A program made the position numbers and the translations under genes. Source: Gammaproteobacteria bacterium (lineage in GTDB: Bacteria; Pseudomonadota; Gammaproteobacteria; Arenicellales; UBA868). From it: a stretch of DNA of 64,000 nt. This document shows positions 2,594 through 57,273 of the stretch, one piece after another (the stretch's first letter is position 1; every line of letters begins with the position of its first letter). The stretch is taken from NCBI GenBank assembly GCA_022451485.1, contig JAKUQS010000006.1:23648-87647 (forward strand), written 5' to 3'. The notes under the pieces were generated by a model. The model was not told the DNA's origin, ran no database searches, and was given only the letters and a program-made list of their open reading frames with translations.

Positions 2594-2594
2594 T

Positions 2595-4271: not shown

Positions 4272-4403
4272 ACCACCTTCTCGTAGGGGCACCTCTCAAG
4301 GACTAACCATCGATCAGTCATACCGGGTTTCGGCTTTTCTACAATACGTTTTTATTGCGCACAACTCGAAAGAAGAATTCTTAACGACAGCTTCTACAGC
4401 GGG

Positions 4404-19050: not shown

Positions 19051-21423
19051 ATGAGCAAGGATTCCCGAAAAATAACGGACTGGTTTGACAGTGAATTACA
19101 GCGTGCTAAAGATGAGTTCTCTCAACTGAACAAGCACGCAACCCCACAACGAATAGACTCTTCGACGCCGAAGCGCGAGACCAATACTGAGAGAGCAAAT
19201 ACAGCCTCCAGCGAGATTCGTACAACACCTGACCATAAAACGGAACCAGTTGCTCGACAACAAGAAACACCGCCACGATCCTCTCCGAACATCGCGGCCC
19301 AGTCAAAACAAAAACCCAGACCAACCCACCAAGAAAATACAACACGTCCCGTTTCGACAGGAACTGCATCTTATCGCTTGGGCGTTGATGTGGGAGGAAC
19401 CTTTACTGATGTTTTATTAATTGATGAAACCAGCGGTGATTTTTTTACCGCTAAAGTAGCATCAACACCGCAAGACTCATCCATTGGCGTACTGGAAGGT
19501 ATTGAACGTGTTTGTCATTCGGCAAATGTTGCTCCGTCCGATATCAGTCATGTAATGCATGGAACAACAGTCGCCACCAACACAGTCCTAACGGCATCTG
19601 GAGCAAAGGTCGGGCTTGTTACTACCAAAGGATATCAACAGGTTCTTCAAATCGCTCGCTCCTATGTTCCGGGGGGGTTGGGCGGTTGGGTGATTTTCAA
19701 CAAAAGCGACCCGCTCTCTCCACTTGAACTCACTATCGAAGCGATCGAACGCATCGACGCGAAGGGCAACATTGTTACCCCGCTTGATGAGGATGCATTG
19801 CAAAACTCTCTGAAATCCCTAGCAAACGAAGGCATTGAAGCGTTAACTGTTTCGTTAATGAATGCGTATGCCAGTGGCATTCATGAGCAACGAGTACGTG
19901 CCATCGCTGAAAGAATAATACCGAACATTCCTGTGTCCATTTCTTCTGAAGTCGTACCCGAAATGTATGAGTACGAACGAACTGAAACAACCGTGGTGAA
20001 TTCGTATATTCGACCCGTAGTCTCCAACTATCTAGAGAGTTTAGAGGGCGAGTTGAATCGCCGAATGAATCAGGTTCAGTTACACATATTACGTTCCGAC
20101 GGTGGTTTGGCCTCAGCTGAGGCTGCTAAAGCGACACCCGTTAATTTATTAATGAGTGGTCCAGCCGGTGGCGTATCGGGTGCAATATGGATTGCAAAAC
20201 AGGCCGGATTTACTGACCTCTTGACTTTTGATATGGGGGGAACCTCGACAGACGTTGCCCTAATTCAGAACGGTGTCCCCCAGACCCGCCGAGAAACTCG
20301 TGTAGCCGATGTGACAGTACGCTCATCCTCGGTTGACGTGCGAACGGTCGGGGCCGGAGGCGGCTCCATCGCTTATGTTCCGGAATTGACCAAAGCTTTG
20401 CGGGTCGGTCCGCAAAGTGCCGGGGCAGAACCTGGTCCGGCGGCCTACGGTAAAGGCGGTATAGAGCCAACGGTCACTGACGCCAACGTTGTACTGGGCT
20501 ATCTCCCAGCGGATGCGAGACTGGGCGGAGAATTGGCGATTGACCGAAAAGAGGCCGAACAAGCAGTGAATAAAGTAGCCAAAGCGATGGATTTATCACT
20601 AAAAGAGGCTGCAGAAGGGATTATCAATATCGTTAACGAAAATATGTTTGGGGCGCTGCGACTGGTCTCCGTTGAACAAGGTTTTGATCCGAGAGACTTC
20701 GCTTTAGTGGGCTTCGGTGGAGCAGGTCCACTTCATGCTAACGCGCTCGGCAAGCTGATGAATTCGTGGCCAGTCATCATACCACCGGGTCCCGGTGTGC
20801 TGTGCGCTTACGGTGACGCCACTACCCGTGTTCGCGACGAAGCTTCCCGAACCTTTGTACGGCGATTTTCCGAGACTAACAACGATGAAGTGCTGTCTGC
20901 TCTCCGAGAGCTCGCGACGGCAGCGGCCCAGACTCTCTATGCCGAGGGAGTGCCTGAAAGTGAACAAACCACGTTGTACCAAATCGACCTCAGGTACGCT
21001 GGGCAAGGAATGCGACTAACGGTTGATGTCTCTCCGGAAGACTTCGAGAGAGACGGCCTAGACGGTCTAGGCCATCGCTTTGACAAGATGCACGAACAGT
21101 TGTTCACCTTCTCTCTCGACACGCAGCGAGAGCTTTACAACTTGCGTGCACTCGTTCAAGGACGGGAAAGTTCGGCAACAGCACTGCGTCTCCCCGAAGG
21201 TGGTGGCGATCCTCAGAGCGCCGGTTACGCTCAAACCACTGTCTTTGTCGAAGGGCGTGATCATGGGGCGATGATTTATGATCGATCGAAATTCAGACAT
21301 GGCGATCGCATCGAGGGTCCAGCAATCGTTACAGAAATGGACTCAACCACCCTGATCCTGCCAAACCATGCCGGTGAGGTAGATTCGGTAGGGAATATTT
21401 TAATTAATCCGATTAACGACTAG
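19051..21423 (+). CDS. hyuA: Hydantoinase/oxoprolinase A-type subunit with ~110-aa low-complexity N-terminal extension (pair 2)
   Basis: Core begins YRLGVDVGGTFTDVLLIDE, with VMHGTTVATNTVLTASGAKVGLVTTKG and DMGGTSTDVALI. Residues 1-110 are Pro/Thr/Gln/Lys-rich with no recognisable domain. No convincing alternative start with an RBS was found near the core. Confidence 0.75.
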   Translation: MSKDSRKITDWFDSELQRAKDEFSQLNKHATPQRIDSSTPKRETNTERANTASSEIRTTPDHKTEPVARQQETPPRSSPNIAAQSKQKPRPTHQENTTRPVSTGTASYRLGVDVGGTFTDVLLIDETSGDFFTAKVASTPQDSSIGVLEGIERVCHSANVAPSDISHVMHGTTVATNTVLTASGAKVGLVTTKGYQQVLQIARSYVPGGLGGWVIFNKSDPLSPLELTIEAIERIDAKGNIVTPLDEDALQNSLKSLANEGIEALTVSLMNAYASGIHEQRVRAIAERIIPNIPVSISSEVVPEMYEYERTETTVVNSYIRPVVSNYLESLEGELNRRMNQVQLHILRSDGGLASAEAAKATPVNLLMSGPAGGVSGAIWIAKQAGFTDLLTFDMGGTSTDVALIQNGVPQTRRETRVADVTVRSSSVDVRTVGAGGGSIAYVPELTKALRVGPQSAGAEPGPAAYGKGGIEPTVTDANVVLGYLPADARLGGELAIDRKEAEQAVNKVAKAMDLSLKEAAEGIINIVNENMFGALRLVSVEQGFDPRDFALVGFGGAGPLHANALGKLMNSWPVIIPPGPGVLCAYGDATTRVRDEASRTFVRRFSETNNDEVLSALRELATAAAQTLYAEGVPESEQTTLYQIDLRYAGQGMRLTVDVSPEDFERDGLDGLGHRFDKMHEQLFTFSLDTQRELYNLRALVQGRESSATALRLPEGGGDPQSAGYAQTTVFVEGRDHGAMIYDRSKFRHGDRIEGPAIVTEMDSTTLILPNHAGEVDSVGNILINPIND

Positions 21424-21441
21424 ATATCGCGACGCTTAAAC

Positions 21442-23334
21442 ATGCCAGCACAACTGATACAAAACAACACGAAACCGTTTCAGTCTGTCACTGTTGATCC
21501 CATTACGTTAGACATCATCGAAAATGCTTTACGTAATGCGCGGACAGAAATGGACGCAGTACTCTTTAGAACTGCCATGTCACCCGGTATACGCGAACAA
21601 CACGATGCCTTCCCAATGATTGCTAACCAGGAAGGGAAAATGGTCGTCGGTCAGTTCGGATCATTTTTCTGGGGGTTCCAGCAAGGTTACGACGGCACCA
21701 TCGAAGAAGGCGACATTTTCCTAACTAATGATCCGTACACCTGTAATGGTGCCATCAGCCATCTGAACGATTGGTTGATGATGATGCCTATTTATATTGA
21801 TGGACGGATAGTCGCGTGGGCTGCAATGTTCGGACACATGACCGACATCGGAGGAAAAGTTCCAGGCAGCCTACCGACCGACGCTGCGCAAATATTTGAA
21901 GAAGGCATTCAAATCCCACCGGTCAAAATCTATCGCAAGGGGGAACTCAACAAAGAAATACTGGAAATGATTCTTCGGAATTGTCGACTCCCAGAATGGA
22001 ATCGCTCAGATTTCAATGCGGTAGTAGCAGCGCTTCGACTGGCTGAACGACGTATCGTTGAAATGGTCGAACGCTTTGGAGTCGACCCGCTGATCTCCGC
22101 GATGCAGGAGATGCTAGATCGAAACAAACGGGCCATGGGCTCCATTCTTAACATGGTGATCCCGGAAACAAAGCAACACTTTGTTGACTATATCGATGAT
22201 GACGGGATGGGCATGGGCCCCTATAAAATCGAATGCACGATGTGGCGTGAAGGCGAAATCGTTATTTTTGATTTCGCTGGAACTGACCCGCAGTCCATCA
22301 GTTCAGTCAATTTCCTCTTAAACGAGGAGATGTTCAAAATGTTCCTGGGCGCATTTTTTATCAATCTTTTTGACCCACAGATACTGTTTAATGATGGCTT
22401 TTATGATCTTGTCGAAGTCAGAATTCCTCGTGGATCAATACTTAAACCCATCCGGCCTGCGGCATTAAGCTCACGGACCCATATGCTAGCCCGCATTTTT
22501 GACATTATGAGCGGTCTGCTCGGTCAAAGTTCACCAGACGCCTTGTGTGCTGCCGGTTTTTCTGACAGCCCGCACTTTATGTACTCGGGTTATGACAAAG
22601 AAGGTGAATGGTATCAGCTCTATCAGATTGGATTCGGCGGAGTCCCCGGACGGCCTGCCGGCGATGGCCCAGACGGCCATTCACTTTGGCCAGCCTTTAC
22701 CAACGTACCCAATGAGTTCCTAGAAGCATACTTCCCGTTACGCATTGTTCAATATCAAACCATTATTGATAGTGGCGGTGCCGGACTACATCGGGGGGGT
22801 AATGGTTTGTCCATGGGTTATCAATTTCTTGAACCCGGGGAAATCTCAATCCATGATGATCGTTGGCTTACCCACCCTTGGGGTGTTAATGGTGGGCGTC
22901 CAGGGAAACGCAGTACCAAACTGATGGTGCGCAACACGGGTGAATCGGAATGGATGTCGTCTAAATGCGATCGAGTTAAAGTGTCACCTGGCGATACCCT
23001 TTACTTCAACACTTGGGGTGGTGGTGGTTGGGGTGACCCGCTTGAACGTGATCCTGCAACAGTCGCATTAGATGTCCGAAGGCGATTAGTTTCTCCCGAA
23101 GGCGCAAAACGCTATGGCGTTGTTATCACCGACGACAATAAAGTTAATGACAATGCTACCGCTGAGTTACGTCGCCAACTTTCATCGTCACGAGGGAAGG
23201 TTGAGTTATTTGACTTTGGTGGCAGCGTAGAGGAATTGAAGGCCAGGTGTCTGTCAGATACTCATCTGCAGCCACCTACGACGCCAGTCTTTCAAAAATG
23301 GATGACCTTATCGGCCAGCGACAGTAAAACCTAG
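21442..23334 (+). CDS. hyuB: Hydantoinase B/oxoprolinase family subunit (pair 2)
   Basis: DPITLDIIENALRNARTEMDAVLFRTAMSPGIRE plus the NDPYTCNGAISHLNDW variant motif. Starts 18 nt after the hyuA stop. Confidence 0.8.
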   Translation: MPAQLIQNNTKPFQSVTVDPITLDIIENALRNARTEMDAVLFRTAMSPGIREQHDAFPMIANQEGKMVVGQFGSFFWGFQQGYDGTIEEGDIFLTNDPYTCNGAISHLNDWLMMMPIYIDGRIVAWAAMFGHMTDIGGKVPGSLPTDAAQIFEEGIQIPPVKIYRKGELNKEILEMILRNCRLPEWNRSDFNAVVAALRLAERRIVEMVERFGVDPLISAMQEMLDRNKRAMGSILNMVIPETKQHFVDYIDDDGMGMGPYKIECTMWREGEIVIFDFAGTDPQSISSVNFLLNEEMFKMFLGAFFINLFDPQILFNDGFYDLVEVRIPRGSILKPIRPAALSSRTHMLARIFDIMSGLLGQSSPDALCAAGFSDSPHFMYSGYDKEGEWYQLYQIGFGGVPGRPAGDGPDGHSLWPAFTNVPNEFLEAYFPLRIVQYQTIIDSGGAGLHRGGNGLSMGYQFLEPGEISIHDDRWLTHPWGVNGGRPGKRSTKLMVRNTGESEWMSSKCDRVKVSPGDTLYFNTWGGGGWGDPLERDPATVALDVRRRLVSPEGAKRYGVVITDDNKVNDNATAELRRQLSSSRGKVELFDFGGSVEELKARCLSDTHLQPPTTPVFQKWMTLSASDSKT

Positions 23335-23352: not shown

Positions 23353-24330
23353 TCAGGCTTTCAACAAGCGAAGCATTGACGCGGCGTCACTCACGCGGAC
23401 ATCAAACCCTGCCTCAACGTTCATGTGGATGATGACTCCCCTTTCAACATACATGGCATAACGCCGGGAGCGCATACCGAGTCCGGACCCCCTCAAATCC
23501 AGTGTTAGGCCCATCCCTCTAGTAAAGCACCCACTCCCATCTGCCAACATTGAAAGCTTGTCCGAGATGTTAGTCGCCCGCGCCCACGCATCCATTACAT
23601 AGGCATCGTTCACGGCAATACATACGACATGATCGACGCCGGTGGCGCACATTTCCGCTGCTGCAGCTATATACCCTGGTAGGTGCTCGCGATTACATAT
23701 AGGTGTAAACGCACCGGGCACTCCGCAAACCACCACTCGTTTTTCTGCAAACCATTCGCCAGAACCGAACGTCAATGAAGTGCCGAATTGTATTTGTTGA
23801 AGCGGCGCATCTGGAACACAATCACCAATTAATCGCCTCGCAGAGAAATAACTTATCAACCCTTCCAGTGCACCCTCAAAGTCATCTGAATTGAACCACT
23901 TCACCAGATCTCCCGCCGGCCCTAGAATCCAAAACACCGCTGGACTTTCAACCGGATCGTGCCCCGAAATACCTCTGAACATTCGGGAAACTGAGTCGTC
24001 AGGATCGAACAACACCTCAATGACACTATCAAGGCGTTCCGACAACTCCTGATTAACTACGAACCCTGCTTGAATGATGACAACCACTCGCGCGTTTCGC
24101 GAACCCAATCGAGAAACAAGCCCTGCCAATTTGTTAACTCTTGCGAGATCCCGGCGTAATGCACCAAAGGTGATGCAACAGAAGACAACATGCTGGCCTG
24201 CAAAATCCTCTGATCGGACAGACAGACCATAATGATTCCGCAAGCAAAACGGTTTGATCTTTTTCACAACTTTGTCGCTACGCAAAACACGTGCATCCTG
24301 CGCACCGCTACTCAGAGGAGTTCGATGCAC
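23353..24330 (-). CDS. Prx5-type peroxiredoxin domain, C-terminal ~165 aa, preceded in-frame by a ~160-aa thioredoxin-fold-like region
   Basis: C-terminal VVCGVPGAFTPICNREHLPGY...VVCIAVNDAYVMDAWA matches the PRDX5/redoxin active-site region. The N-terminal half (GQHVVFCCITFGALRRD...) looks like a second degenerate AhpC/TSA-like domain. The true start is uncertain. Confidence 0.6.
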   Translation of the reverse strand: MHRTPLSSGAQDARVLRSDKVVKKIKPFCLRNHYGLSVRSEDFAGQHVVFCCITFGALRRDLARVNKLAGLVSRLGSRNARVVVIIQAGFVVNQELSERLDSVIEVLFDPDDSVSRMFRGISGHDPVESPAVFWILGPAGDLVKWFNSDDFEGALEGLISYFSARRLIGDCVPDAPLQQIQFGTSLTFGSGEWFAEKRVVVCGVPGAFTPICNREHLPGYIAAAAEMCATGVDHVVCIAVNDAYVMDAWARATNISDKLSMLADGSGCFTRGMGLTLDLRGSGLGMRSRRYAMYVERGVIIHMNVEAGFDVRVSDAASMLRLLKA

Positions 24331-24752
24331 CGTGTAAGCGCGTCCCGAACAGCCGCTTCACATGCCTCCCGTTCCACACTCATCTCTCCATCGTCGGCGA
24401 GGGCTGGCATGTTATTGGAACGTCGCATCAATGGGGCTCGACCAAACTGACTTTTTCGAATGCCAAAGGCAGGCAATTCCAAACGCACTAACACTAGTAT
24501 CTCGTCACCCTCAACGCGACGATCTCTAATTTCATGCCGCCACTTCTCCCCATAATGTTGTTCTAACCATTGAATGGGATCATCCAAGTGATCTCGGGTT
24601 TCTTCGGTTAGCCGAACTACCTTTACTTCGGCACCTTTACCATGGGGATCTGCGCGTGGAGACTCAATATTGACGCTCGCATAGAGACTTTCTAGCTGCT
24701 CTCGATTCGCATCCAGCAGTTCAGAGAAAGTATTTCCAGAATTTGAGCTCAT
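24312..24752 (-). CDS. Hypothetical protein whose C-terminal ~80 aa form a domain also found fused to two HyuB proteins in this window
   Basis: YGEKWRHEIRDRRVEGDEILVLVRLELPAFGIRKSQFGRA...EREACEAAVRDALTRCIELL aligns with residues ~60-135 of the HyuB at 28326 and with the last ~79 aa of the HyuB at 39554. Track ORF starts at TTG 24767 (overlapping the upstream hydrolase stop). ATG at 24752 is the alternative start. Confidence 0.5.
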   Translation of the reverse strand: MSSNSGNTFSELLDANREQLESLYASVNIESPRADPHGKGAEVKVVRLTEETRDHLDDPIQWLEQHYGEKWRHEIRDRRVEGDEILVLVRLELPAFGIRKSQFGRAPLMRRSNNMPALADDGEMSVEREACEAAVRDALTRCIELL

Positions 24753-24763
24753 GCGCGCTCTCT

Positions 24764-25486
24764 TCAAAAATCAACACGCGTTGGCAATGTTCCTTGCCAC
24801 CATTGCCGGAATTCGTTGTCAGCGCGGCCTTCCATTCCCCCAGCTACCACGAGTGCCTCGAGATGTTCTTGTATCTCCTGTTCAACCTTAACGTCACAGT
24901 ATTTCGAATCCATGTCAAAGAGATTGGCGTGATGGGGACCCTCGGCACGATCACCAACACCCTCTCGGCAAACAATAGTCCGAAAGCCGTATTGTAAGGA
25001 ATCAACTGCAGAGGCCCTCACACACCCACTAGTGGTCGCCCCGGTGATAATGACAGTATCGACACCCTGCCCATGAAAATAACGATCCAATTCGGTACCA
25101 AAAAATGCACTAGCGTACTTCTTAATGATGACCTCATCACCTTTTACGGGAGCAATTCTCGAATCAATTTCTACCCACTTAGAGCCTTTAACAAGCAATG
25201 ACAATGCCGGAATCTTCTCTATGAATATGCCCGCGTCATTAAAGTCTGGGGCATAAGCTACCGTTGTGTAGACCACCGGGAAACATCCTTTTCTGAATGC
25301 CGCCAGTAATCGAGCGGTAACGGCAACCTGATCATCAAAATTCCCGCCCAATGGTGATGTTGGATCGGTAAATCCGTTGCTGAAATCGACGATTAATAAT
25401 GCCGGTTTCTCTCCAAAGCCAGACCTACTGCCTAATCCTTTCTCTGCGTAGTCAGCACGGGTTGGTTCTTCCCAATCGTGTTTCAT
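24764..25486 (-). CDS. Isochorismatase-family cysteine hydrolase (paralog of 18349-18996)
   Basis: ALLIVDFSNGFTD and IITGATTSGCVRASAVDSLQYGFRTIV are closely parallel to the 18349 gene. ATG at 25486 (MKHDWEE) is preferred, which removes the overlap with the upstream membrane-protein gene. Confidence 0.65.
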   Translation of the reverse strand: MKHDWEEPTRADYAEKGLGSRSGFGEKPALLIVDFSNGFTDPTSPLGGNFDDQVAVTARLLAAFRKGCFPVVYTTVAYAPDFNDAGIFIEKIPALSLLVKGSKWVEIDSRIAPVKGDEVIIKKYASAFFGTELDRYFHGQGVDTVIITGATTSGCVRASAVDSLQYGFRTIVCREGVGDRAEGPHHANLFDMDSKYCDVKVEQEIQEHLEALVVAGGMEGRADNEFRQWWQGTLPTRVDF

Positions 25487-25512
25487 GGATAACCCAGTTA
25501 TTGAACAATGTC

Positions 25513-26058
25513 TTAACGACGTCCGACCACTCCGGGGGGCGTCCAACCGCGGCGCCAACCCACTCTGTAAGCCCGAACTACTCGGTGCAGCAAATAAAAC
25601 AAAATCGCCATTAACATCAAAACAAACACAGACAGCAAGCGACTCCCGAACACGGCACTGATGATCTGACCATCATTCATTAGGTGCTCGCTCAGCATTT
25701 CAACAGCCTGAATAGTCGCCCCGGCACACAAGATGACAGCAGCCAAAATGGCTATCTGCAGGGTATCGAAAACCAGTTCTTGCGCACTTGTTTCTGAAAA
25801 CTGGTCAAATATATTCTTTTTAAATGACTGCCGATGGGAGATTGCAAAACTAATGATCGCAACCACTGATGCAAACCAGAAGAGAATATTGGAAAAATGG
25901 ATTCTTGGGATATGCTCCATTAAATACTGCTCTACCGGTTGGTAAAACAGTAAAAAGAGAACAATAACGACAACAATACCCAATCCAATCCAGGATCCGG
26001 GCCGTTGCCACCGGTTTTGTAAGGATTCCATCGCTGATCCATACTCCAGAGGTTCCAC
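25513..26058 (-). CDS. Small integral membrane protein (about 4 TM), unknown function
   Basis: Hydrophobic segments IGLGIVVVIVLFLLF, FWFASVVAIISFAI, LQIAILAAVILCAGATIQAV and LLSVFVLMLMAILFYLL. GTG start with AAGAGG 6 nt upstream. It shares an A-x-L-x-AGA-x-x-QAV motif with the protein at 37903-38370. Confidence 0.5.
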   Translation of the reverse strand: MEPLEYGSAMESLQNRWQRPGSWIGLGIVVVIVLFLLFYQPVEQYLMEHIPRIHFSNILFWFASVVAIISFAISHRQSFKKNIFDQFSETSAQELVFDTLQIAILAAVILCAGATIQAVEMLSEHLMNDGQIISAVFGSRLLSVFVLMLMAILFYLLHRVVRAYRVGWRRGWTPPGVVGRR

Positions 26059-26265
26059 GTCGACCTCTTTATACCATCAACAGTCTCATTCGTGTCAGCT
26101 CTTGGCCAAACGAACCAGAAGAAAATATTCAGCTACTATTTTAAACGACTTCCCGCGCACCGCGATCTGTTGTAAATTCTTCAACTCTAATTCGACCCGC
26201 GCCGAACCGGTCAACCTAAGCCATTTGGTATTCCGCCAGATTCTTAAAAGGAGAAGTTTAAGCTG

Positions 26266-28329
26266 ATGTCTGCCCGCCTAGGGATTGATGTTGGAGGGAC
26301 GTTTACGAACTTATCCCTTCTGGATGAGCGTTCAGGGAACATATATGCGGCAAAGATTCCGTCGACACTTGGCGATCCCACGTCAAGGATCTTTTCTGGA
26401 CTGGATGAACTCCTCGAAATCAGCGACGTGTCGGCCGCAGACATCGCGACGGTTGTTAACAGCACGTCGTTACCCTCGGCGGTCGTTGCTGAACGAAATG
26501 GCTCGAAAGTCGCTCTACTTACCACTCAAGGCTTTGAACACATACTTCTTCTAGGAGGGGTATCGGAGGATTCTGCCTCATCCAATCCCCATACGGCCAT
26601 CCAGGCAGAACCACTGGCGGATCTTGCGCTGACGCGCGGTATTCCGGAACGTATGTCATCCGACGGACAAATCCTACAGCCACTGGACGACTCGGTTGCG
26701 TCGGCTCTGATCCAGGAGATTATTCACCTAGGGGCGGAACATATAGCCGTATCACTACTTCATTCCTACGCTAATCCTTTACACGAACGCATTCTCCGTG
26801 ACCTGATATCAAACATTGCTCCGGATTTACCCGTGACACTATCGAGCGAATTACGACGGGTCTTTCATGAGTTTGAGCGCACGTCTCTCGCAGTGATGAA
26901 CGCCTATGTTCAGCACAGCATGATCACCCATTTAAAAAGTCTAGGGGACAAATTCGCAGACCTGTCTGCACCCCCGCATATATTTGTAGCACGATCGGAT
27001 GGCGGGCTCATGGGTTTAGAGCGCGCGCAACGCACTCCGATCTTCGCTGCGCTGTCCAGTTCTGCATGCGCCGCAGGGGCCGCCCACAGCATTGCCTCTT
27101 CCGCTAACTGTGGCGATACGATCGCGTTAGACTGGGGAGGAAACACAACAGAAATTACACTGCTCCATCAGACTCTACGGCCACCTTTACGAGACGGATC
27201 GCTCGGTCCCTATTGCCTTGGACTTCCAACACTGGGCACGCGACACATTGGAGGCGGCGCAGGCTCTGTTATTGATATCCCAATAACAGGAAAGATTCGT
27301 ATAAAGAGCGACACCTATAATGGCCCTGGTCCGGCGTGTTACGGACTTGGCGGCACCGTCGCAACACTAACCGATGCCAATGTGATCTTGGGTCGACTAC
27401 CCTGCGAATTCCTGGCCGGGCGTATTCCAATCGATATCGAGGCGGCCGAGACAGCGGTGTCCGTCGCGGGAAAAGCGCTTGGGATGAATCCTGTAGAGGC
27501 AGCCCAAGCGATAATTGATGTTGCGAACGAGAAAGTTTACGGCGCCATACGTCAGCTCATGTCAGAACGACATTCGGATGACAAAGAATTCAACTTGATT
27601 GCGTTTGGGGGCGCTGGCCCAATGCACGCGAACGCCATAGGAATCCTCGGAAATATGTTCCCTGTTGTAATACCAGCCCAACCAGGCATGGTATCGGCTC
27701 ACGGCGCCCTATTCGCATCACAACGCCATGAGCTGGCCCAGACCATACTCAAGCCGGTTACTCATATAACCGGACAACTGCTCGATGATGCACTGGACAA
27801 GCTACAAACTCACGTCAGTACACAATTGCAAGAAGATGGATCAACTAACGACCAGTACACATTCCTGGCAGAGGCTGATCTTCGTTACTGTGGCGATAGC
27901 AGCGAGATTACACTCCCCTTAAATGTTGTCGACCCAAGTGCGGACCTTTCTCAACTAGAAGCACAGTTTATGCGGGCCCATCAGAACTTGTGCGGATTTG
28001 AGATGGATTTACCAGTTGAGATCGTCAACTTGCGAATCATCGGGTATACACAATCTCAAGTAACGACATCAAACGCCAAACATCAAGCCCGAAGGTCAGA
28101 ATCCACCCCACCCAATCAATGCCGAACCTATTTTGATGGGAGTTTCCTCGACACCAAGGTCTATGAGCGCGCAGATTTGATGCCCGATGAGTCCGTTTCG
28201 GGCCCGGCTGTAATCCTCCAATACGATGCCACCACCCTAATTCACCCAGGCCATGTCGCCCATGTTACTCCCGAGGGCACGCTTTTGATTAAACCTCAAA
28301 CACCGACGGATAACGCGACACTATCGTGA
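26266..28329 (+). CDS. hyuA: Divergent hydantoinase/oxoprolinase A-type subunit (pair 3)
   Basis: LGIDVGGTFTNLSLLDE and overall collinearity with HyuA. The otherwise invariant HGTTVATN segment is replaced by NSTSLPSAVVAERNGSKV. AAGGAGA RBS precedes the ATG at 26266. Confidence 0.7.
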   Translation: MSARLGIDVGGTFTNLSLLDERSGNIYAAKIPSTLGDPTSRIFSGLDELLEISDVSAADIATVVNSTSLPSAVVAERNGSKVALLTTQGFEHILLLGGVSEDSASSNPHTAIQAEPLADLALTRGIPERMSSDGQILQPLDDSVASALIQEIIHLGAEHIAVSLLHSYANPLHERILRDLISNIAPDLPVTLSSELRRVFHEFERTSLAVMNAYVQHSMITHLKSLGDKFADLSAPPHIFVARSDGGLMGLERAQRTPIFAALSSSACAAGAAHSIASSANCGDTIALDWGGNTTEITLLHQTLRPPLRDGSLGPYCLGLPTLGTRHIGGGAGSVIDIPITGKIRIKSDTYNGPGPACYGLGGTVATLTDANVILGRLPCEFLAGRIPIDIEAAETAVSVAGKALGMNPVEAAQAIIDVANEKVYGAIRQLMSERHSDDKEFNLIAFGGAGPMHANAIGILGNMFPVVIPAQPGMVSAHGALFASQRHELAQTILKPVTHITGQLLDDALDKLQTHVSTQLQEDGSTNDQYTFLAEADLRYCGDSSEITLPLNVVDPSADLSQLEAQFMRAHQNLCGFEMDLPVEIVNLRIIGYTQSQVTTSNAKHQARRSESTPPNQCRTYFDGSFLDTKVYERADLMPDESVSGPAVILQYDATTLIHPGHVAHVTPEGTLLIKPQTPTDNATLS

Positions 28330-30617
28330 AGAAACCCACCCTTTCCCTGGATGAACTCGCGGCCGCCAATCAAAGCGAGTTTGATCAATTATTTGCAACA
28401 AGGATGGCGCTCAGCCCCCCGATCATCACCGATGGCGTTGCTCAAGCGCCTATACCAGCCCACCAAATAGCAAACGATACTGACAATGATGCGCCTTCTG
28501 TCGGACCACATATTGCTACCTTGCTGACAAACACTTACGCCAATGGCTGGTCATATGAAATTGTTGAACACGAGGTGGGGCCAAGAGACGTCCGAGTACT
28601 TTGTCGTCTAACAGCGATGGACCAAACTCGAATGCAGTTTGGCACGGCCGTTAACGATGGAAATATCGGAATCGCACTTCAACGAGCAACGGATGATGCG
28701 CTCGCCCGTTGTCATGCTGATCTGGCCCCAGAGACGCACGCTGACTTTGTCTCTGCCCACGGACATCAACGAACACACAAGGTAGCCGGGCCAACCAGCA
28801 CGCTAAGCCAAAGCGAGCAGATCTCCAAAGCTATAAAAGAAAATACCCGCGCTGGAGACGACATTGAAATCTCGCTGCCTCATATTGTGGAGACTGCGTT
28901 GACGTGCGCACGACGAGAAATGGACACTCTTCTTTTTGGTAGAGCCATGTCCTCTGGAATCCGCCTCCAGCGGGACGCCGGCACCCTGATCGCGGATCCC
29001 AACGGGTGTTTGCTGGTTGGGAATACCGAAACCGATTTACCCAAACTGTTACGGGAATCCATGTCTGATCTCGCTCCTGGGGATGTCATCCTACACAGTG
29101 ACCCATATAGCGCCGGGGGGGCTGGCGGGCACTTGAACGACTGGTGCATCGTAACTCCCATCTTTTTAGAGAGCCGACTTGTGGGATTTAGCTCGGCCTA
29201 CGGACATATGAGTGATGTCGGCAGTGAAGCACTTGGCAGTAACCCGGCGACCGCACATTCTATTTTTGGCGAAGGCCTGCGTATTCCACCCATTAAGCTA
29301 TACAAGAACGGCATCCTAAATCACGAATCGCTTGCAATTCTGACGAGCAATACCCGGACACCCGTCGCAAACCATCACGATCTACTGGCACTGGTAGCGG
29401 CCACAAGAATAGGTGAAGCCCGAGTGCTTCAATTGTGCGCGCGCTTTGGTGAACACAGCTATATCCGGGCAAGTGAAATACTGCAAGAACAGACACATCA
29501 GATGATGCGCAAAATCATATCCAAATACTTTCCCATTGAACCCCAATCATTTCACGACTACATAGATGATGACGGCTGTGAACACGGACCTTTTCGACTA
29601 AAAGTGACCATCTGGCGTGAAGGTGACAAAGCTTATGTAGATTGGACGGGCACGGATGCCCAAGCCCTCGGACCTATCAATCTTCATCTTCAGGAATCAA
29701 CTTTACAGAGTCTTGTGGGTCGCTACCTACTTCGTCGTGTCGACCCGGAGATGGAACCATGCGGCAGCGGCAACTCGTTATTTGACATCACACTTCCCAA
29801 AGGCTCACTCATTAAAGCCGCGTTTCCTGCAGCCTTGGGTAGCCGTAGACACGTGCTAGGTCGGTTACGGGATGTTTTAAATGGTGTATTCAGCCACTCA
29901 GCCGATTCGCTCGTCACAGCAGCAGGCGAATCCAGTCAGAGCCTTTTTACTTTTGTACCAGGTGATGATGCTCGAGGGCTACCGCTGTCTGAACCCCACT
30001 TTGGCGCCCTGCCAGCGCGCGCAGCTTCAGACGGAATTGATGGACCGAGCTGGGCACACAGCAGGAAACTATATTCTGTTGAGGCCATGGAACATCGGAC
30101 ACCAGTAAGAGTTGACTCCCGACGGTGTATTCCAGATTCCGGTGGTGCGGGAACCTTTCGGGGTGGTAACAGCGTAGCAACGATCTACCAATTTACAGCG
30201 CCCGGAGCGCTGTCGATTCAGGATGATCGCCAGAATGGCAGGCCGTGGGGTGTTTTTGGAGGCCAAGCTGGGTCTTGTTCTGAAAAGTCTTTAACCACGA
30301 AAAACGGTGAACAGCGAACAATCGCGGCTAAAGCGGACCGTGTATCGGTTTACCCAGGTGATAAACTGCATTATGTGGAGCCCGGTACTGGAGGCTGGGG
30401 AGATCCGCTGAGACGGTCCGTGGAAGCTGTCCAAAAAGACGTCGCACGCGGATTAACCACCATTGTGTCAGCCAAAAACGACTATGGGGTAATCATCGAT
30501 TCAGACACAGGGGCGGTTCAGGCGGAGGAAACCGACGCATTACGTCGACGTGTTATGGGTACACCTGGAAAACGCTTACATTTCGACTTTGGAAAGAAAG
30601 CAGCTCCCGAACCCTAA
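28326..30617 (+). CDS. hyuB: Hydantoinase B/oxoprolinase family subunit with ~190-aa N-terminal extension carrying the recurrent ~80-aa domain (pair 3)
   Basis: HyuB core begins near IVETALTCARREMDTLLFGRAMSSGIR and includes the SDPYSAGGAGGHLNDW motif. N-terminal residues ~55-135 (NGWSYEIVEHEVGPRDVRVLCRLTAMDQTRMQFGTAVNDGNIGIALQRATDDALARCHADL) are homologous to the protein at 24312-24752. GTG start overlaps the hyuA stop (GTGA). Confidence 0.75.
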   Translation: MKKPTLSLDELAAANQSEFDQLFATRMALSPPIITDGVAQAPIPAHQIANDTDNDAPSVGPHIATLLTNTYANGWSYEIVEHEVGPRDVRVLCRLTAMDQTRMQFGTAVNDGNIGIALQRATDDALARCHADLAPETHADFVSAHGHQRTHKVAGPTSTLSQSEQISKAIKENTRAGDDIEISLPHIVETALTCARREMDTLLFGRAMSSGIRLQRDAGTLIADPNGCLLVGNTETDLPKLLRESMSDLAPGDVILHSDPYSAGGAGGHLNDWCIVTPIFLESRLVGFSSAYGHMSDVGSEALGSNPATAHSIFGEGLRIPPIKLYKNGILNHESLAILTSNTRTPVANHHDLLALVAATRIGEARVLQLCARFGEHSYIRASEILQEQTHQMMRKIISKYFPIEPQSFHDYIDDDGCEHGPFRLKVTIWREGDKAYVDWTGTDAQALGPINLHLQESTLQSLVGRYLLRRVDPEMEPCGSGNSLFDITLPKGSLIKAAFPAALGSRRHVLGRLRDVLNGVFSHSADSLVTAAGESSQSLFTFVPGDDARGLPLSEPHFGALPARAASDGIDGPSWAHSRKLYSVEAMEHRTPVRVDSRRCIPDSGGAGTFRGGNSVATIYQFTAPGALSIQDDRQNGRPWGVFGGQAGSCSEKSLTTKNGEQRTIAAKADRVSVYPGDKLHYVEPGTGGWGDPLRRSVEAVQKDVARGLTTIVSAKNDYGVIIDSDTGAVQAEETDALRRRVMGTPGKRLHFDFGKKAAPEP

Positions 30618-30718
30618 ACGCCTATGGCCACGATACCACAGACCAAATCGATAAAATAACGCCGCCACAGGCATTACAATCAACTATTAGAAAGCCACAA
30701 AACAGCTGGAACGCGCCT

Positions 30719-33283
30719 ATGTCCATCGAAAGCCTAATCACTATCGTCCTAATAGCAATTGTTGCGATCGCTATTTTCTATATCATTTCTATCTGGGTCT
30801 ACAAACGGGCACCAGCCAATATGGGCTTCATCCGTACCGGTTTCGGTGGCACACGTGTCTGCCTCGGGCAAGGCGCCATTGTTCTACCTGTTTTCCACGA
30901 AGTCTCATGGGTGTCGCTGGAAACTATTAAATTGATCGTCGGTCGCGCGCGTGATCAGGCCATTTTGACGCACGACAATATCCGCATTGACGTCGTTGCT
31001 GAACTCTATACTCACGTTGGGCACACTGCCGACTCCCTTCTCATTGCAAGCAGAAGTCTGGGCCAAAAGACATTCGATCCCGACACGGTTCGTAGTCTCC
31101 TTGAAGCAAAAATCATCAGCGCATTGCGGAGCTACGCGGCGACAAAAGATCTAGCGGAACTACATGAAAATCGAGACACCTTCGCACGCGACATAAAATC
31201 ACAGGTTATCGAAAGCTTCAGCGCAAATGGTCTTGTCCTGGAAGAAGTCACCATTGTCTCGATGGAGCAAACGGGAAAAGAGTACTTCAAGACCGATAAT
31301 GTCTTCGATGCAGAAGGCCTACGAATCATTACCGAGATCACATCACGGGCGAAACGGGACGTCCACGAAACCGAAAAACGAACCAGTGTGGCGATTCGAC
31401 AGAAGGAATTAGAGACTCAACTCGAATTGCTCGAAATCGAACGTCAAGAGGCGTTTGCTCGTTCGGTACAAGATCGGGCCATCTCCAACGAACAAGCCCT
31501 TCATGTCGGTGAAAAGCAACGTTACGTCCTCGATCAAAAACTATCTGTTGAACAAAAGGAGATCGAAAACGAACGTCTGGTTGAACAACTCAGAACTGAG
31601 CGTGATGTAGCCATCATCGAAGAGTCACAAAAACGTGAATCTTCAGAAATTGAGAAAGGCAAACTGATCGAGCAACAACGACGAGATCGTGAGATCGTAC
31701 TCATTGAAAAAGCGAAACAGGAGGAATTAGCCGAAATCACACGCAAACTCGATCTTGACAAAGCAGAAAAGGATCGGCAGATAGAGCTCGTTGAGAAAAC
31801 GAAACAGGAGGAGCTCGCTCAAATCACACGTGAGGTGTCATTGGATGCGGCCCAAAAGGATAAACAAATACGATTGATCGCCAACGAACAAGAGCGGGAA
31901 GAAGCCGAAATTGAACGCCAGACGGTCATCACCGCTCGCGAGGAAAGCGCCCGCCTTGAACGGAGTAAAGTTGCAGAACAGGCGGAAATCGCCATCAGTC
32001 AGGAAAAACTCAAAACCCGATTAGCTCTTCTCGATGTTAATAAACAGGATGCCCTTTCCACCTCCTCTCAGGAGAAAGACGTTGCGGAAGCTCAGGCTAC
32101 CCTGTTGAGTGAAAAACAGCGATTCCTGCTCGAAGAGAAATGGAAAGTTGAACAAGAGGAAATCAACAAAGAGTTGGAACTCGAGAAAGCCCAAATCGCG
32201 AAAGATACGTCGATTCTAAGTGAGTCCCAAAAACGGGAGACGGCAGAGGTCCAACGTTCCCTGGCGCGGCAAAGTGAGGAGCGAAATCGGGAAATCGCTT
32301 TATCCGCAAAAGATGCTGACCTTGAATTGGCGGCTGCAAAACGCCTAGAGGCCACGGCATCCCGACAGCAGGCCGAACATAATGCCGACTCAGTCCGACA
32401 TATCGCTGACGCGGAACGTCAAAAGATCATCGACCTGATAGAGGCTGAAAATAACGCGGATACACGCCGTGTAGAAGAGGAAAATAACGCCGAAATCACG
32501 CGAATGCATATGCTTGCGCAGGCCGATGCGAGGAAAGAAGCGGCTGAGCGTGAAGCCACAGCAACTCTCACCCGCGCCCAGGCGACCAGTGATGCACAAC
32601 AAATCTCCGCCATTGGGATCGAGAAGGAAGCAGCCGCTAAAGGGCGGGCCGAAATGGAGATCGAACAACTGAGAGTTGCGAACACACAACGCATGCTGGA
32701 AGCAGAAGCAAGTGGAATTGAGGCAAAAGCAGATGCTTTGAAGAAATATAACGATGCGGCTACCTTTCTAGAACTATCGAAAATGCATATAGAAGCTGAA
32801 CGCGATGTTCGTAGTGATCAGGCTAAAGCGATGGGTAATGCGCTACAGGGCGCCCAAATAAGAATGTATGGTGGCAGTGATGACGGAACCATAGACAACA
32901 TCCGCGGCCTGTTTACCTCCGGTTTTGGGATTGGAGAGGCACTTGAAGGCCTCGCTCAGTCCCTACCCGAAGGGCTACGCCAGCGATTTGCTCAGAATGG
33001 CGTACGCGGCCTTTTTGGAACGCCAAATGGCGCAGGTCGCTTCCAGGAAGCAGTCGCTGCTGTGGGCACATTACTCCAGGGCACTTTAAAGACAAAACGT
33101 GAGCGCGAAGCCACAACTTTTCAGGACGCGGTGCAAATATTGGAAGAGGCCGCAGGCGCAGACACAGCACAGTTAGAAGCTGTTGCAACGCTTTCCCAAT
33201 TTAACCAAGACGGCGTTTTTAACGAAGTCCCATTTGAAACTGTATGGAGTCTGGTCCTCGCCACATCAAAGGCGGTAAATTAA
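30719..33283 (+). CDS. Flotillin / SPFH (band-7) family protein with extended coiled-coil region
   Basis: N-terminal TM (IVLIAIVAIAIFYIISIWVY), SPFH core (GFIRTGFGGTRVCLGQGAIVLPVFHEVSWVSLETIKL...) and about 450 aa of E/A/Q/K/R-rich heptad-like sequence. At 854 aa it is well beyond the typical ~500-550 aa of YqiK/flotillin homologs. Confidence 0.75.
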   Translation: MSIESLITIVLIAIVAIAIFYIISIWVYKRAPANMGFIRTGFGGTRVCLGQGAIVLPVFHEVSWVSLETIKLIVGRARDQAILTHDNIRIDVVAELYTHVGHTADSLLIASRSLGQKTFDPDTVRSLLEAKIISALRSYAATKDLAELHENRDTFARDIKSQVIESFSANGLVLEEVTIVSMEQTGKEYFKTDNVFDAEGLRIITEITSRAKRDVHETEKRTSVAIRQKELETQLELLEIERQEAFARSVQDRAISNEQALHVGEKQRYVLDQKLSVEQKEIENERLVEQLRTERDVAIIEESQKRESSEIEKGKLIEQQRRDREIVLIEKAKQEELAEITRKLDLDKAEKDRQIELVEKTKQEELAQITREVSLDAAQKDKQIRLIANEQEREEAEIERQTVITAREESARLERSKVAEQAEIAISQEKLKTRLALLDVNKQDALSTSSQEKDVAEAQATLLSEKQRFLLEEKWKVEQEEINKELELEKAQIAKDTSILSESQKRETAEVQRSLARQSEERNREIALSAKDADLELAAAKRLEATASRQQAEHNADSVRHIADAERQKIIDLIEAENNADTRRVEEENNAEITRMHMLAQADARKEAAEREATATLTRAQATSDAQQISAIGIEKEAAAKGRAEMEIEQLRVANTQRMLEAEASGIEAKADALKKYNDAATFLELSKMHIEAERDVRSDQAKAMGNALQGAQIRMYGGSDDGTIDNIRGLFTSGFGIGEALEGLAQSLPEGLRQRFAQNGVRGLFGTPNGAGRFQEAVAAVGTLLQGTLKTKREREATTFQDAVQILEEAAGADTAQLEAVATLSQFNQDGVFNEVPFETVWSLVLATSKAVN
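31714..31887 (+). repeat. In-frame tandem duplication, 2 x 87 nt, inside the flotillin coiled-coil
   Basis: Protein units IEKAKQEELAEITRKLDLDKAEKDRQIELV and EKTKQEELAQITREVSLDAAQKDKQIRLI. Nucleotide units aaacaggaggaattagccgaaatcacacg.. and aaacaggaggagctcgctcaaatcacacg.. are about 75% identical. Confidence 0.6.
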
Positions 33284-33307
33284 CCACGCTTACCATAGCC
33301 ACTAGTT

Positions 33308-41680: not shown

Positions 41681-41699
41681 AAGTTATAAATTCATTTTC

Positions 41700-43781: not shown

Positions 43782-43927
43782 CAATCATCCTTGTTAGAAT
43801 TGATCCTTGTTCATGAAATATGTCAAACGCCCTACCAATAACCCTCTCTAACTCACTCGTCAAGTCATTCGCCGATGATTCTCCCTGAAACTGCAGTTCA
43901 ACCAGCAAAACACTTTACCCGATACCT

Positions 43928-48580: not shown

Positions 48581-48815
48581 CAAACAACCCCCTTTATCGA
48601 TTCAACTTCATTATTTACGTGATGTGCCTGCTTTTCCAAACCGTGTCCACAACCAACCCATCTGCCACCACCTAAAAGTAACCTGATCCCAGCTTCCGTT
48701 GCTTGCCTTTGCCTTCCCTCATTGATGACTTTTCCTCACAACAACTAAGTCAGTATCCGGACACCAGCAAGTCAAGGTGTCGGCTATAGAGCCATGGTAG
48801 ATTCTCCATAGGACA

Positions 48816-57269: not shown

Positions 57270-57273
57270 GGCG

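Follow-up and report, generated by a model that had tools for sequence, protein, structure and literature searches.

In the 64,000-nucleotide stretch of gammaproteobacterial DNA analyzed here (the window), a 146-aa protein and the extensions of two HyuB proteins, N-terminal in HyuB 28326 and C-terminal in HyuB 39554, are homologous copies of one domain. This domain belongs to the Rad52/Rad22 single-strand-annealing superfamily, as a divergent member, and is not a new fold, and the HyuAB-associated family that it defines is a previously undescribed branch of that superfamily. The original prediction, made from the DNA letters of the window, had called the domain novel and unrecognized, which was not upheld, as profile, profile-profile and structure searches all point to Rad52/Rad22. 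The features discussed below are collected in Table 1.

Table 1. Features of the window that carry or surround the Rad52-like domain
Feature	Position	Strand	Evidence or remark
Stand-alone Rad52-like protein, HyuAB-associated "clade A" member	24312..24752	-	146 aa incl. stop codon
N-terminal amphipathic helix of the stand-alone protein, residues 7-26	24675..24734	-	AF2 helix; conserved in free proteins and N-terminal HyuB fusions
Rad52-type core of the stand-alone protein, residues 59-145, with a helix, three beta-strands and a variable loop before the long bridging helix	24318..24578	-	AF2 pLDDT 93-97; hhalign
Cysteine hydrolase of the isochorismatase family, encoded immediately upstream of the free Rad52-like gene	24764..25558	-	PF00857 E 1.7e-30
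Redoxin/AhpC-TSA (Prx5-like) protein, downstream of the small gene	23353..24330	-	PF08534 E 1.4e-24
HyuA (790 aa) and unfused HyuB B2 (630 aa; HyuB 21442), convergent with the free Rad52-like gene	19051..23334	+	Pfam
Predicted membrane protein of 181 aa, encoded divergently from the HyuA gene of the N-fused system	25513..26058	-	Conserved in position
HyuA partner of the N-fused HyuB	26266..28329	+	PF01968, PF05378, PF19278
HyuB paralogue B3, 763 aa, N-terminal Rad52-like domain	28326..30617	+	PF02538 residues 187-694, E 4.7e-109
N-extension of this HyuB, residues 1-136: N-helix and Rad52-like core, short loop	28326..28733	+	BLASTP E 3e-7; HMM E 1.7e-21
854-aa SPFH/Band_7 flotillin-like protein and ABC ATPase, after the N-fused HyuB	30719..34390	+	PF01145, PF00005
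HyuB paralogue B4, 708 aa, C-terminal Rad52-like domain	39554..41680	-	PF02538 residues 7-536
C-extension of this HyuB, about residues 609-704: a Rad52-like core that lacks the N-helix motif	39569..39856	-	BLASTP E 8e-7; HMM E 4.4e-5
HyuA partner of the C-fused HyuB	41700..43784	-	Pfam

Three copies of one domain

The small ORF reads from an ATG at 24752 on the minus strand and encodes 146 aa. With an alternative start, a TTG at 24767, the protein would be 5 residues longer; the ATG is favored because the N-termini of homologues (MTSNSRNSGNSFSELL...) agree with it. The TGA of the isochorismatase gene (24764-24766) is separated from this ATG by an 11-nt spacer (AGAGAGCGCGC), so that of the overlap or abutment first proposed for the two genes, abutment stands and overlap does not. 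The isochorismatase, small and Redoxin genes lie on one strand, and the true start of the Redoxin gene is likely near 24267; its counterpart in locus L001 encodes 304 aa and begins 44 nt after the small gene. A scan for promoters and terminators gave nothing convincing, with one weak 5-bp hairpin after the small gene.

BLASTP aligned nearly the entire small protein with the N-extension of HyuB 28326 (E 3e-7), and this extension in turn matched the C-extension of HyuB 39554 (E 8e-7). Because the small protein and the C-extension gave no significant direct BLASTP match, their link is transitive or profile-based. An independent HMM, built from 43 family members that are each less than 40% identical to any window copy, was run on the full set of 1785 six-frame ORFs from the window and the loci. 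It detected the small protein (E 1.5e-30), the N-extension (E 1.7e-21, residues 8-135) and the C-extension (E 4.4e-5), and no fourth copy scored among the six-frame ORFs of the window. The three segments, whose quoted peptide strings were all located in the sequence, thus align as originally claimed, each significantly in the profile comparison, and BLASTP and the HMM agree on one domain that occurs free, at the N-terminus of a HyuB and at the C-terminus of another. The similarity had been placed in the C-terminal 80 or so residues of the small protein; this limit was too narrow, as the BLASTP alignment with the N-extension spans almost the whole protein. Pfam, NCBIfam and PDB sequence searches with the three copies or with a first small alignment gave no matches, and at E <= 10 Pfam returned for the three copies only a spurious DUF6822 match (E 0.093) on the C-extension.

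Both HyuB extensions are genuine, since the Hydantoinase_B domain covers only residues 187-694 of the 763 aa of B3 and 7-536 of the 708 aa of B4. The C-terminal fusion is retained in B4 relatives at 63-99% identity. Homologues of the C-extension that seemed to be encoded by separate genes were rejected as such, being fragments of fused HyuBs at contig ends or at an N-run/scaffold gap (L009). B3 and B4 share 28% identity and belong to different HyuB subfamilies; the N- and C-terminal fusions are therefore independent and reflect at least two events. The unfused B2 shares 38-53% identity with N-fused HyuBs, versus 28-34% with its window paralogues B1, B4, B5 and B6. Judged by sequence identity, B2 falls in the HyuB subfamily to which the N-fused proteins belong, and it is a candidate in-trans partner of the free Rad52-like protein. 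Caprolactamase models come nearest to the HyuA and HyuB proteins of the window, at scores far below their cut-offs.

A branch of the Rad52/Rad22 superfamily

With this family as the only seed, an exhaustive profile search yielded 242 representatives, of which 149 were scanned with Pfam. Rad52_Rad22 was found in 39 of the 149 (best E 6.8e-18) and Mgm101p in 4. In an HMM-HMM comparison with hhalign, the domain matched bacterial Rad52_Rad22 proteins with 99.4% probability over 80-83 columns at 34% consensus identity, with E-values of 1.4e-21 and 9.6e-22 that are somewhat favored because the bacterial proteins were collected by similarity to the HyuAB-associated family. In a PDB search, the bacterial Rad52-likes matched yeast Rad52 at E 1e-6 and, at E about 1e-4, human RAD52; phmmer with one of them (P0072) found no PDB match. 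The best nine Foldseek matches were all human RAD52. The PF04098 model scored 23.3 bits on an N-terminal HyuB extension (P0047), above its gathering cut-off of 20.3 bits, and 18.3 bits on another protein (P0032); it matched none of the three window copies even at E <= 10. The Rad52 link emerged only with deeper profiles and the intermediate set of bacterial Rad52-likes: hhalign of a shallow 9-sequence alignment against one human RAD52 sequence (approximate) gave a non-significant probability of 1.2%.

The domain has the architecture that characterizes the Rad52 superfamily (PMC11783212), a bridging alpha-helix lying across a three-stranded beta-sheet. The same core of helix, three strands and bridging helix is found in bacterial and phage Rad52-likes (PF04098, about 200-240 aa), together with a common signature (LN..F...W.[FY]E[IV]....., [IV].VL..L, K.QFG.A, A..A...AL.+C); a leading NR..LE helix may also be common to both groups. 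In the 41-sequence family alignment, the core residues W71, G104, A134 and C142 are invariant. The core is preceded by a helix with the family motif S-x-F-D-[ED]-[LM]-L-x-x-N-[RK]-x-[QE]-[LF]-[DE]-x-L-[YF], whose ten-residue block 11-20 has a mean pLDDT of 91 in the AF2 model, and by a low-confidence coil (residues 27-47). In a search with a motif HMM, no other enzyme of the window carried this N-helix. HyuA 19051 has an N-terminal extension (WFDSELQRAKDEFSQL) that resembles the helix by eye, but the likeness received no support from the HMM and was rejected.

Absent from the family is the beta-hairpin beside the sheet, which is described as essential for annealing and DNA binding in single-strand-annealing proteins of the Rad52 superfamily (PMC11783212). 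Neither AF2 model has a strand before residue 72, and in the joint alignment no segment of the family corresponds to the hairpin region shared by bacterial Rad52-likes and human RAD52. The hairpin motif KQR.G....L.Y.EG and the C-terminal GVGLxLY/stem segment, both proper to the bacterial Rad52-likes, occur in 0 of 61 motif-bearing members, and the small protein stops as soon as the bridging helix is complete.

RAD52 forms undecameric rings and holds single-stranded DNA in a groove lined by R55, Y65, K152, R153 and R156. The equivalents of R55 and Y65 are R in 24 and Y in 25 of 25 bacterial Rad52-likes, and are unalignable or unconserved in the family. The family also differs from the N-terminal domain of eukaryotic RAD52 and from mitochondrial Mgm101, in that it has no hairpin to bear R55 and Y65 and has mostly Ala at the K152 position (A27/R19/T4 of 69). 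At the K144 position the counts are R21/Q17/E8; the K144 and K152 positions are basic in about a third of the family and the R153 position (the "RC" motif) in about half, with Arg in all three window copies. Equivalents of the fold-determining W84, A146, L151 and C154 are retained. On the alignment, most of the conserved Rad52 DNA-contact residues are lost, and the positions are relaxed in comparison with bacterial Rad52-likes. Net charge and pI of the core did not discriminate as a proxy for lost DNA binding, bona fide bacterial Rad52-likes being equally acidic.

Other small domains were compared as well. RDM1 (RAD52 motif-containing protein 1) has only a small RAD52-like motif and a function distinct from that of RAD52 (PMC11783212). 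By description, with no sequence comparison, it is a precedent for a small RAD52-like motif on its own, and it differs in that its motif is combined with an RRM and a nucleic-acid function, whereas the family is partnered with a metabolic enzyme. Double-stranded-RNA-binding domains (alpha-beta-beta-beta-alpha) scored below RAD52 in structure and showed no sequence-profile link, and Pfam dsrm gave no match. The gamma subunit of acetone carboxylase and the small subunits of acetophenone carboxylase, small extra polypeptides of a HyuA/HyuB-type enzyme, may be alike in role, a conjecture of the original prediction; no sequence or fold relationship to subunits of either enzyme was detected, and Acetone_carb_G was unmatched at E <= 10.

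Genomic contexts of the family

The family comprises at least 60 clusters at 50% identity, each of metagenome or MAG origin, and a genome scan with a single protein found one relative, in an uncultured gammaproteobacterial SAG (68% identity). The contexts stem mostly from a few metagenome projects and include several error-prone long-read contigs with frameshifted genes. In at least 15 representative clusters the domain is fused N-terminally to Hydantoinase_B, and in 12 of 12 loci examined it is fused to, or adjoins, HyuB genes. Every context read was either HyuA followed by domain-HyuB, or an isochorismatase gene followed by the free domain beside HyuAB; bacterial Rad52-likes differ from this catabolic-enzyme setting in their prophage or recombination context. 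With these clusters and loci and the two independent fusions, the Rosetta-stone link to HyuB that the original prediction had drawn extends well past the window.

The most constant neighbor of the free form is the upstream isochorismatase-like gene, present in four separate lineages. The pair was found also in L001, L006, L002 (60% identity, 11-nt spacer) and L003-L005, and in the last three the isochorismatase, free domain, HyuA and HyuB follow each other in that order and direction. Of the cysteine hydrolase and peroxiredoxin initially assigned to the small gene as operon partners, the hydrolase is thus constant and the peroxiredoxin is not: the Redoxin gene is present in the window, L001 and L006 and absent from L003-L005, and as a neighbor it is particular to the lineage of the window. 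One apparent isochorismatase-domain fusion (P0117) looks like a frameshift merge of adjacent genes and was counted as adjacency only.

Genes for a Band_7 protein and an ABC ATPase always lie downstream of the N-fused HyuB (L003-5, L006, L007, L008 and L012; 56-70% identity). The 854-aa flotillin-like protein of the window has an N-terminal hydrophobic segment and a long E/K/Q/A-rich region. ORFs 55-58% identical to the 181-aa membrane protein occupy the same position in L003-5, L007, L008 and L012, and a paralogue (25% identity, E 3.5e-11) belongs to the C-fused cluster of the window (37903-38370) and of L009.

Possible roles of the domain

Taking the sequence evidence together, we lean somewhat toward an exapted protein-protein module of HyuA/HyuB-type enzymes, in which DNA annealing would have been lost and the domain reused as an oligomerization or adaptor element. 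For HyuB 28326 and HyuB 39554 it would act in cis, and for the HyuA 19051/HyuB 21442 pair in trans; the strongly conserved N-terminal amphipathic helix would be the best candidate for a docking element. The domain may link an ATP-dependent ring-opening enzyme to the hydrolase of the next step. Creatinine degradation, in which N-methylhydantoinase is followed by N-carbamoylsarcosine amidase of the isochorismatase family, is a model for such coupling.

Retained nucleic-acid binding, by which the enzyme or the free protein would regulate its own operon through DNA or mRNA, has a precedent in the RHH domain of the proline enzyme PutA. Genuine homology to a DNA/RNA-binding superfamily, fold similarity to dsRNA-binding domains and the Arg shared by all window copies at the R153 position speak for it, as does the finding of no dedicated transcription regulator among the annotated ORFs, which cover part of the window. 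However, the essential hairpin is missing, the equivalents of R55, Y65 and K152, invariant in bacterial Rad52-likes, are lost, and three copies on different enzymes of one genome would be an odd design for a regulator; we consider such regulation unlikely. Slightly less credible still is a tether that would hold the enzymes, targeted by the N-helix, at a membrane platform of flotillin-like SPFH protein, small membrane proteins and ABC importer in a transport-metabolism complex. The module of 181-aa membrane protein, HyuA, domain-HyuB, Band_7 and ABC ATPase is kept in at least 7 loci, from lineages with 50% and 61-65% GC, and identity is higher for Band_7 (56-63%) and for the ATPase (68-70%) than for HyuB (42-48%). 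The C-fused cluster holds both the paralogue of the small membrane protein and permeases of the importer, and the N-helix followed by a flexible linker is reminiscent of targeting peptides. Yet co-localization is the whole of this support, the free form occurs in L002 and L001 without a Band_7 gene, though on short contigs, the C-terminal copy has no N-helix, and the helix motif was found on no other enzyme of the window.

The remaining explanations are less probable. A small-molecule-sensing allosteric domain, comparable to the regulatory beta-beta-beta-alpha domains in isopropylmalate or citramalate synthase, seems improbable to us. A redox role, in which C142 would act together with the adjacent peroxiredoxin-like protein and cysteine hydrolase, would fit the invariance of this residue in the family alignment and the Redoxin gene after the small gene in the window, L001 and L006. 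But the equivalent Cys is present in 22 of 25 ordinary bacterial Rad52-likes, so that C142 is ancestral and probably structural; the Redoxin neighbor is not conserved, and the HyuB-fused copies have no redoxin partner. We rejected this role as very improbable. To a wholly novel domain without relatives, acting as an analogue of a gamma subunit, we give almost no credence: the window protein has no Pfam, NCBIfam or PDB sequence match, but the convergence of profile, profile-profile and structure searches on Rad52/Rad22 refutes novelty of the fold. The idea of an accessory subunit survives within the module that we favor.

The exapted module that we favor might, in a bolder version to which we attach a small probability, have turned from a ring protein that anneals DNA into an assembly or tethering device and organize HyuAB and the follow-up amidohydrolase into higher-order assemblies, possibly at an SPFH platform beside the ABC importer, as an import-and-degrade metabolon. 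If true, such metabolic assembly would be the first role of the Rad52 fold that does not involve nucleic acids. To our knowledge, every role so far known for a Rad52-superfamily protein is in the annealing or repair of DNA or RNA, and full-text literature searches found no paper with both Rad52 and hydantoinase or oxoprolinase. If our reading is right, the family would represent a clear exaptation of the Rad52 fold and broaden what a "Rad52-like" annotation in a genome means. It would also add an unrecognized accessory element to the HyuA/HyuB family of hydantoinases, oxoprolinases, caprolactamases and acetone/acetophenone carboxylases. The conserved supercluster of two HyuAB systems, isochorismatase-like hydrolase, flotillin-like protein and ABC importer may bear on the degradation of cyclic amides and ureides in uncultured marine or symbiotic Gammaproteobacteria and in higher-GC lineages.

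Relationship of the domain to the Rad52 superfamily

The 146-residue product of the small gene (the free form) had no sequence match in Pfam, NCBIfam or the PDB. Given 9 aligned sequences, AlphaFold2 confidently predicted one helix, three strands and another, long helix; with 41 sequences, mean pLDDT rose to 82.9 (93-97 in the core, on average 91 in the N-helix block, residues 11-20). Human RAD52 chains made up all of the best nine Foldseek matches (E 6e-4 to 3e-3), with TM-scores kept low (0.33-0.44) by flexible parts of the model. A profile built only from relatives of the small protein (the family) retrieved 242 proteins at E <= 1e-3 when 1.84 billion representatives were searched exhaustively with hmmsearch. 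Pfam scans of 149 of these detected Rad52_Rad22 in 39 (best E 6.8e-18), Mgm101p in 4 and Hydantoinase_B in 8, and the N-terminal extension of one metagenomic HyuB (P0047) scored 23.3 bits with the Rad52_Rad22 model (cut-off 20.3 bits). Using hhalign, the family (56 or 41 sequences) was aligned over 80-83 columns with 24 canonical bacterial Rad52-like proteins, a set gathered by similarity to the family, at 99.4% probability (E 1.4e-21 and 9.6e-22). In the PDB, the profile of the bacterial proteins in turn matched Rad52 of yeast (E 1e-6) and of humans (E about 1e-4). Together, the Foldseek, profile, hhalign and Pfam evidence identifies the domain as a divergent Rad52/Rad22 member. The original prediction had not recognized it and called it novel; the HMM-HMM comparison and structure prediction that it proposed both point to Rad52, so that there is no novel fold.

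The further claim, that the small protein shares one domain with extensions of two HyuB subunits, held. In BLASTP comparisons, the small protein matched the N-terminal extension of HyuB 28326 (residues 1-136) at E 3e-7, and this extension matched the C-terminal extension of HyuB 39554 (about residues 609-704) at E 8e-7; the direct BLASTP match between small protein and C-terminal extension was not significant. A non-circular HMM, built from 43 family members from elsewhere, none of which reaches 40% identity with a window copy, was run against all 1785 six-frame ORFs from the window and the fetched loci. It scored the three copies at E 1.5e-30, 1.7e-21 and 4.4e-5 (small protein, N- and C-terminal extension), and found no fourth copy among all six-frame ORFs of the window. 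Similarity had been placed in the C-terminal 80 or so residues of the small protein; it is present there, but the BLASTP match with the N-terminal extension spans almost the entire protein, including an N-terminal helix not remarked before. Both HyuB extensions are real, and the C-terminal fusion is kept in relatives that are 63-99% identical. Candidate separate-gene homologues of the C-terminal extension were contig-end fragments or, in locus L009, due to a run of N within HyuB.

Features of the window (HyuB identities are pairwise, for the catalytic parts, to N-fused HyuBs from elsewhere)
Feature	Position	Strand	Remarks
Pair with HyuB 2595	551-4292		No domain nearby; 25-41% (joint range with HyuB 44707 and 55584)
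Second isochorismatase	18349-18996		Only ~40% identical
Pair with HyuB 21442	19051-23334		Unfused, beside free gene; 38-53%
HyuA 19051 extension	19051-19365		N-terminal, ~105 aa
Redoxin/AhpC-type gene	23353-24330	-	PF08534; downstream of small gene, same strand
Terminator-like hairpin	24291-24305	-	Weak; 5-bp stem, then GTGTTTTGCG
Small Rad52-like ORF	24312-24752	-	146 aa from ATG at 24752
Isochorismatase-family gene	24764-25558	-	PF00857; ends 11 nt upstream of small-gene ATG
Five-gene module	25513-34390		Arrangement (a)
Pair with HyuB 28326	26266-30617		HyuB 28326-30617, 763 aa; Hydantoinase_B residues 187-694; N-terminal fusion; 42-59%
ABC ATPase	33308-34390
ABC permeases	34511-36351
ABC SBP	36509-37792
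155-aa ORF	37903-38370	-	Downstream of C-fused HyuB; no Pfam match
350-aa ORF	38441-39493	-	Downstream of C-fused HyuB; no Pfam match
Pair with HyuB 39554	39554-43784		HyuB 39554-41680, 708 aa; Hydantoinase_B residues 7-536; C-terminal fusion; 28-33%
Pair with HyuB 44707	44707-48583		No domain nearby; 25-41% (joint range)
Pair with HyuB 55584	55584-59307		No domain nearby; 25-41% (joint range)

HyuB fusions and gene neighborhoods

The N-terminal domain-HyuB fusion occurs in at least 15 representative clusters. HyuB 21442 and HyuB 28326 share 39% identity; with HyuB 39554, either shares only 28-30%. As the domain is N-terminal in one and C-terminal in another of these distant paralogues, it joined HyuB at least twice, which makes the Rosetta-stone link to HyuB stronger than originally proposed. 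We consider it very probable that the domain is a Rad52-superfamily offshoot dedicated to HyuAB systems. Judged from sequence relationships, the free form is predicted to supply the domain where a HyuB of the normally N-fused subfamily (HyuB 21442) is without it.

Family members came from metagenomes or MAGs throughout and were annotated in every source only as "hypothetical protein". The single match among GTDB species genomes was in a SAG from an uncultured gammaproteobacterium (68% identity, full synteny with the window). Many contexts stem from a few metagenome projects with frameshifted long-read contigs. Two arrangements were seen. In arrangement (a), HyuA and domain-HyuB are followed by a flotillin-like SPFH/Band_7 protein of about 850 residues and an ABC ATPase, with a divergent gene for a 170-180-residue membrane protein upstream. 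It is found in the window and in L003-L005, L006, L007, L008 and L012, partially in L010 and L011; the GC content of these loci (61-67%, against about 50% in the window) indicates different lineages. Across the lineages that share the five-gene module with the window (L003-L008 and L012; 50% and 61-65% GC), Band_7 protein (56-63% identity) and ABC ATPase (68-70%) are more conserved than HyuB (42-48%). The divergently encoded small protein of the module has four TM segments, and the window Band_7 protein (854 residues) has an N-terminal hydrophobic segment and a long E/K/Q/A-rich region. In arrangement (b), an isochorismatase-like hydrolase gene directly precedes the free form (window, L001, L006). 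In L002, the small protein is just 34% and the hydrolase 60% identical, with an 11-nt spacer again, and in L003-L005 isochorismatase, free domain, HyuA and HyuB follow one another co-directionally.

HyuA/HyuB are split into 2-3 called genes in L003-L005, L007, L008 and L010-L012. As many of these contigs are long-read assemblies, the splits are probably due to frameshift errors. Several short-loop database members that seem to be "stand-alone" are thus really N-terminal HyuB pieces, and free versus fused counts from protein databases will be biased. P0117 (347 residues, metagenome) was rejected as a true fusion of isochorismatase and Rad52-like core; its linker is apparently out of frame, the N-helix motif is missing, and the protein is probably a frameshift merge of two adjacent genes.

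A longer reading of the small ORF, from TTG at 24767, is possible, but the N-termini of homologues begin MTSNSRNSGNSFSELL..., favoring the ATG. The small-gene start had been said to overlap or abut the isochorismatase stop; it abuts the stop, across a spacer, and does not overlap it. Isochorismatase-like hydrolases preceding the free form share a C-terminal tail ending in F(R/Q)(Q/R)WW (window, 24764-24850, ...NEFRQWWQGTLPTRVDF; L002, 2-418, ...DDFQRWWSQSPGASA), which may mark a dedicated subfamily. The peroxiredoxin-like neighbor is restricted to the window's lineage. It is bipartite, with a Prx5-like C-terminal half (motif PGAFTPIC) and an N-terminal half of about 165 residues with a weak AhpC-TSA-like signal only. 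Its listed GTG start (24330) would make it overlap the small gene; judging from the L001 homologue, the start is about 44 nt past the small-gene stop. The hairpin between small-gene stop and redoxin gene was not above background in a region scan (8 sites against 3.2 +/- 1.6 expected).

The gene content of the window suggests a catabolic island for amides, lactams or ureides. Its six HyuA/HyuB pairs have full Hydantoinase_A/B domains in the five scanned; the pair at 55584 was assigned from ORF size and blastp similarity to other HyuBs. The HyuB paralogues are mutually only 27-39% identical, and caprolactamase models are nearest to the window HyuA/HyuB, but with scores far below cut-offs. Around the pairs lie TRAP and ABC transporters, an FGase-family amidohydrolase, a dimethylformamidase-like protein, an MlrC/M81 peptidase, two isochorismatase-like hydrolases and CoA-ligase/thiolase/MaoC genes. 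Both domain-bearing HyuB systems converge on one ABC importer. The 155-aa ORF (with the 350-aa ORF, L009 1029-2620) is distantly paralogous to the N-fused module's 181-aa membrane protein (25% identity, E 3.5e-11 via L009), so that both systems have a small membrane-protein companion; the 350-aa ORF has only a weak CoxB-like N-terminal match.

Departures from Rad52 and possible function

Two features define the Rad52 superfamily, a beta-hairpin and a three-stranded sheet that a helix crosses, and both are termed essential for annealing (PMC11783212). The family has the sheet and crossing helix but lacks the hairpin: no strand precedes residue 72 of the model, and AlphaFold2 models and the family alignment place a low-confidence, often long and low-complexity linker there. 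The GVGLxLY C-terminal segment of bacterial Rad52-like proteins was found in none of 61 family members bearing the N-terminal motif. We compared human RAD52 positions (R55, Y65, K152 and others) that contact DNA in RAD52 structures. In the joint alignment, bacterial Rad52-like proteins have R at R55 (24/25), Y at Y65 (25/25) and K at K152 (24/25), whereas the family has no counterparts of R55 and Y65 and varies at K152 (A27/R19/T4 among 69). The K144 equivalent is R21/Q17/E8, and W84, A146, L151 and C154 are kept. Core charge did not separate the two groups.

The family hallmark is an N-terminal amphipathic helix, S-x-F-D-[ED]-[LM]-L-x-x-N-[RK]-x-[QE]-[LF]-[DE]-x-L-[YF], conserved in free proteins and N-terminal fusions and missing from the C-terminal copy. 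The joint alignment hints that this helix may be equivalent to the first Rad52 helix. The HyuA 19051 extension, of the same length in L001 and L006 (HyuA of 789-790 residues), has a short helix (ITDWFDSELQRAKDEFSQL) and a low-complexity Pro/Thr/Gln-rich linker; this helix resembles the N-helix by eye and was not detected by the motif HMM. The fold and superfamily are already known. The branch without the hairpin seems not to have been described, nor do its N-helix and its dedication to HyuA/HyuB enzymes: full-text searches found no paper naming Rad52 together with hydantoinase or oxoprolinase, and enzyme fusions go unmentioned in a 2024 structural survey that covers more than 10,000 SSAPs (PMC11783212).

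Absence of the hairpin and of conserved DNA-contact residues, together with two independent HyuB fusions, points most readily to exaptation of the domain as a protein-protein module; we give about an even chance to a module of this kind that no longer acts on DNA. Arginine at the R153 equivalent in all three window copies leaves room for residual nucleic-acid binding, although retained binding that serves autoregulation seems unlikely. Tethering of the enzymes to a flotillin-like/ABC importer platform, compatible with a protein-protein module, would fit the co-conservation of Band_7 protein and ABC ATPase with domain-HyuB across lineages; we rate it slightly lower still. An allosteric ligand sensor is improbable, and a redox role of the invariant cysteine very improbable, because the cysteine is ancestral to Rad52-like proteins and the redoxin neighbor is not conserved.

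Going beyond the homology, losses and associations observed here to a mechanism, we infer that the protein-protein module would serve HyuAB enzymes in assembly or as an adaptor, acting in cis within HyuB 28326 and HyuB 39554 and, as the free form, in trans for HyuA 19051/HyuB 21442. There is tight coupling between the free form and an isochorismatase-like amidohydrolase gene. In creatinine degradation, an N-methylhydantoinase step is followed by N-carbamoylsarcosine amidase, a pairing mirrored here by ATP-dependent HyuAB and an isochorismatase-family hydrolase. This parallel makes it plausible that the module would couple two consecutive enzyme steps.
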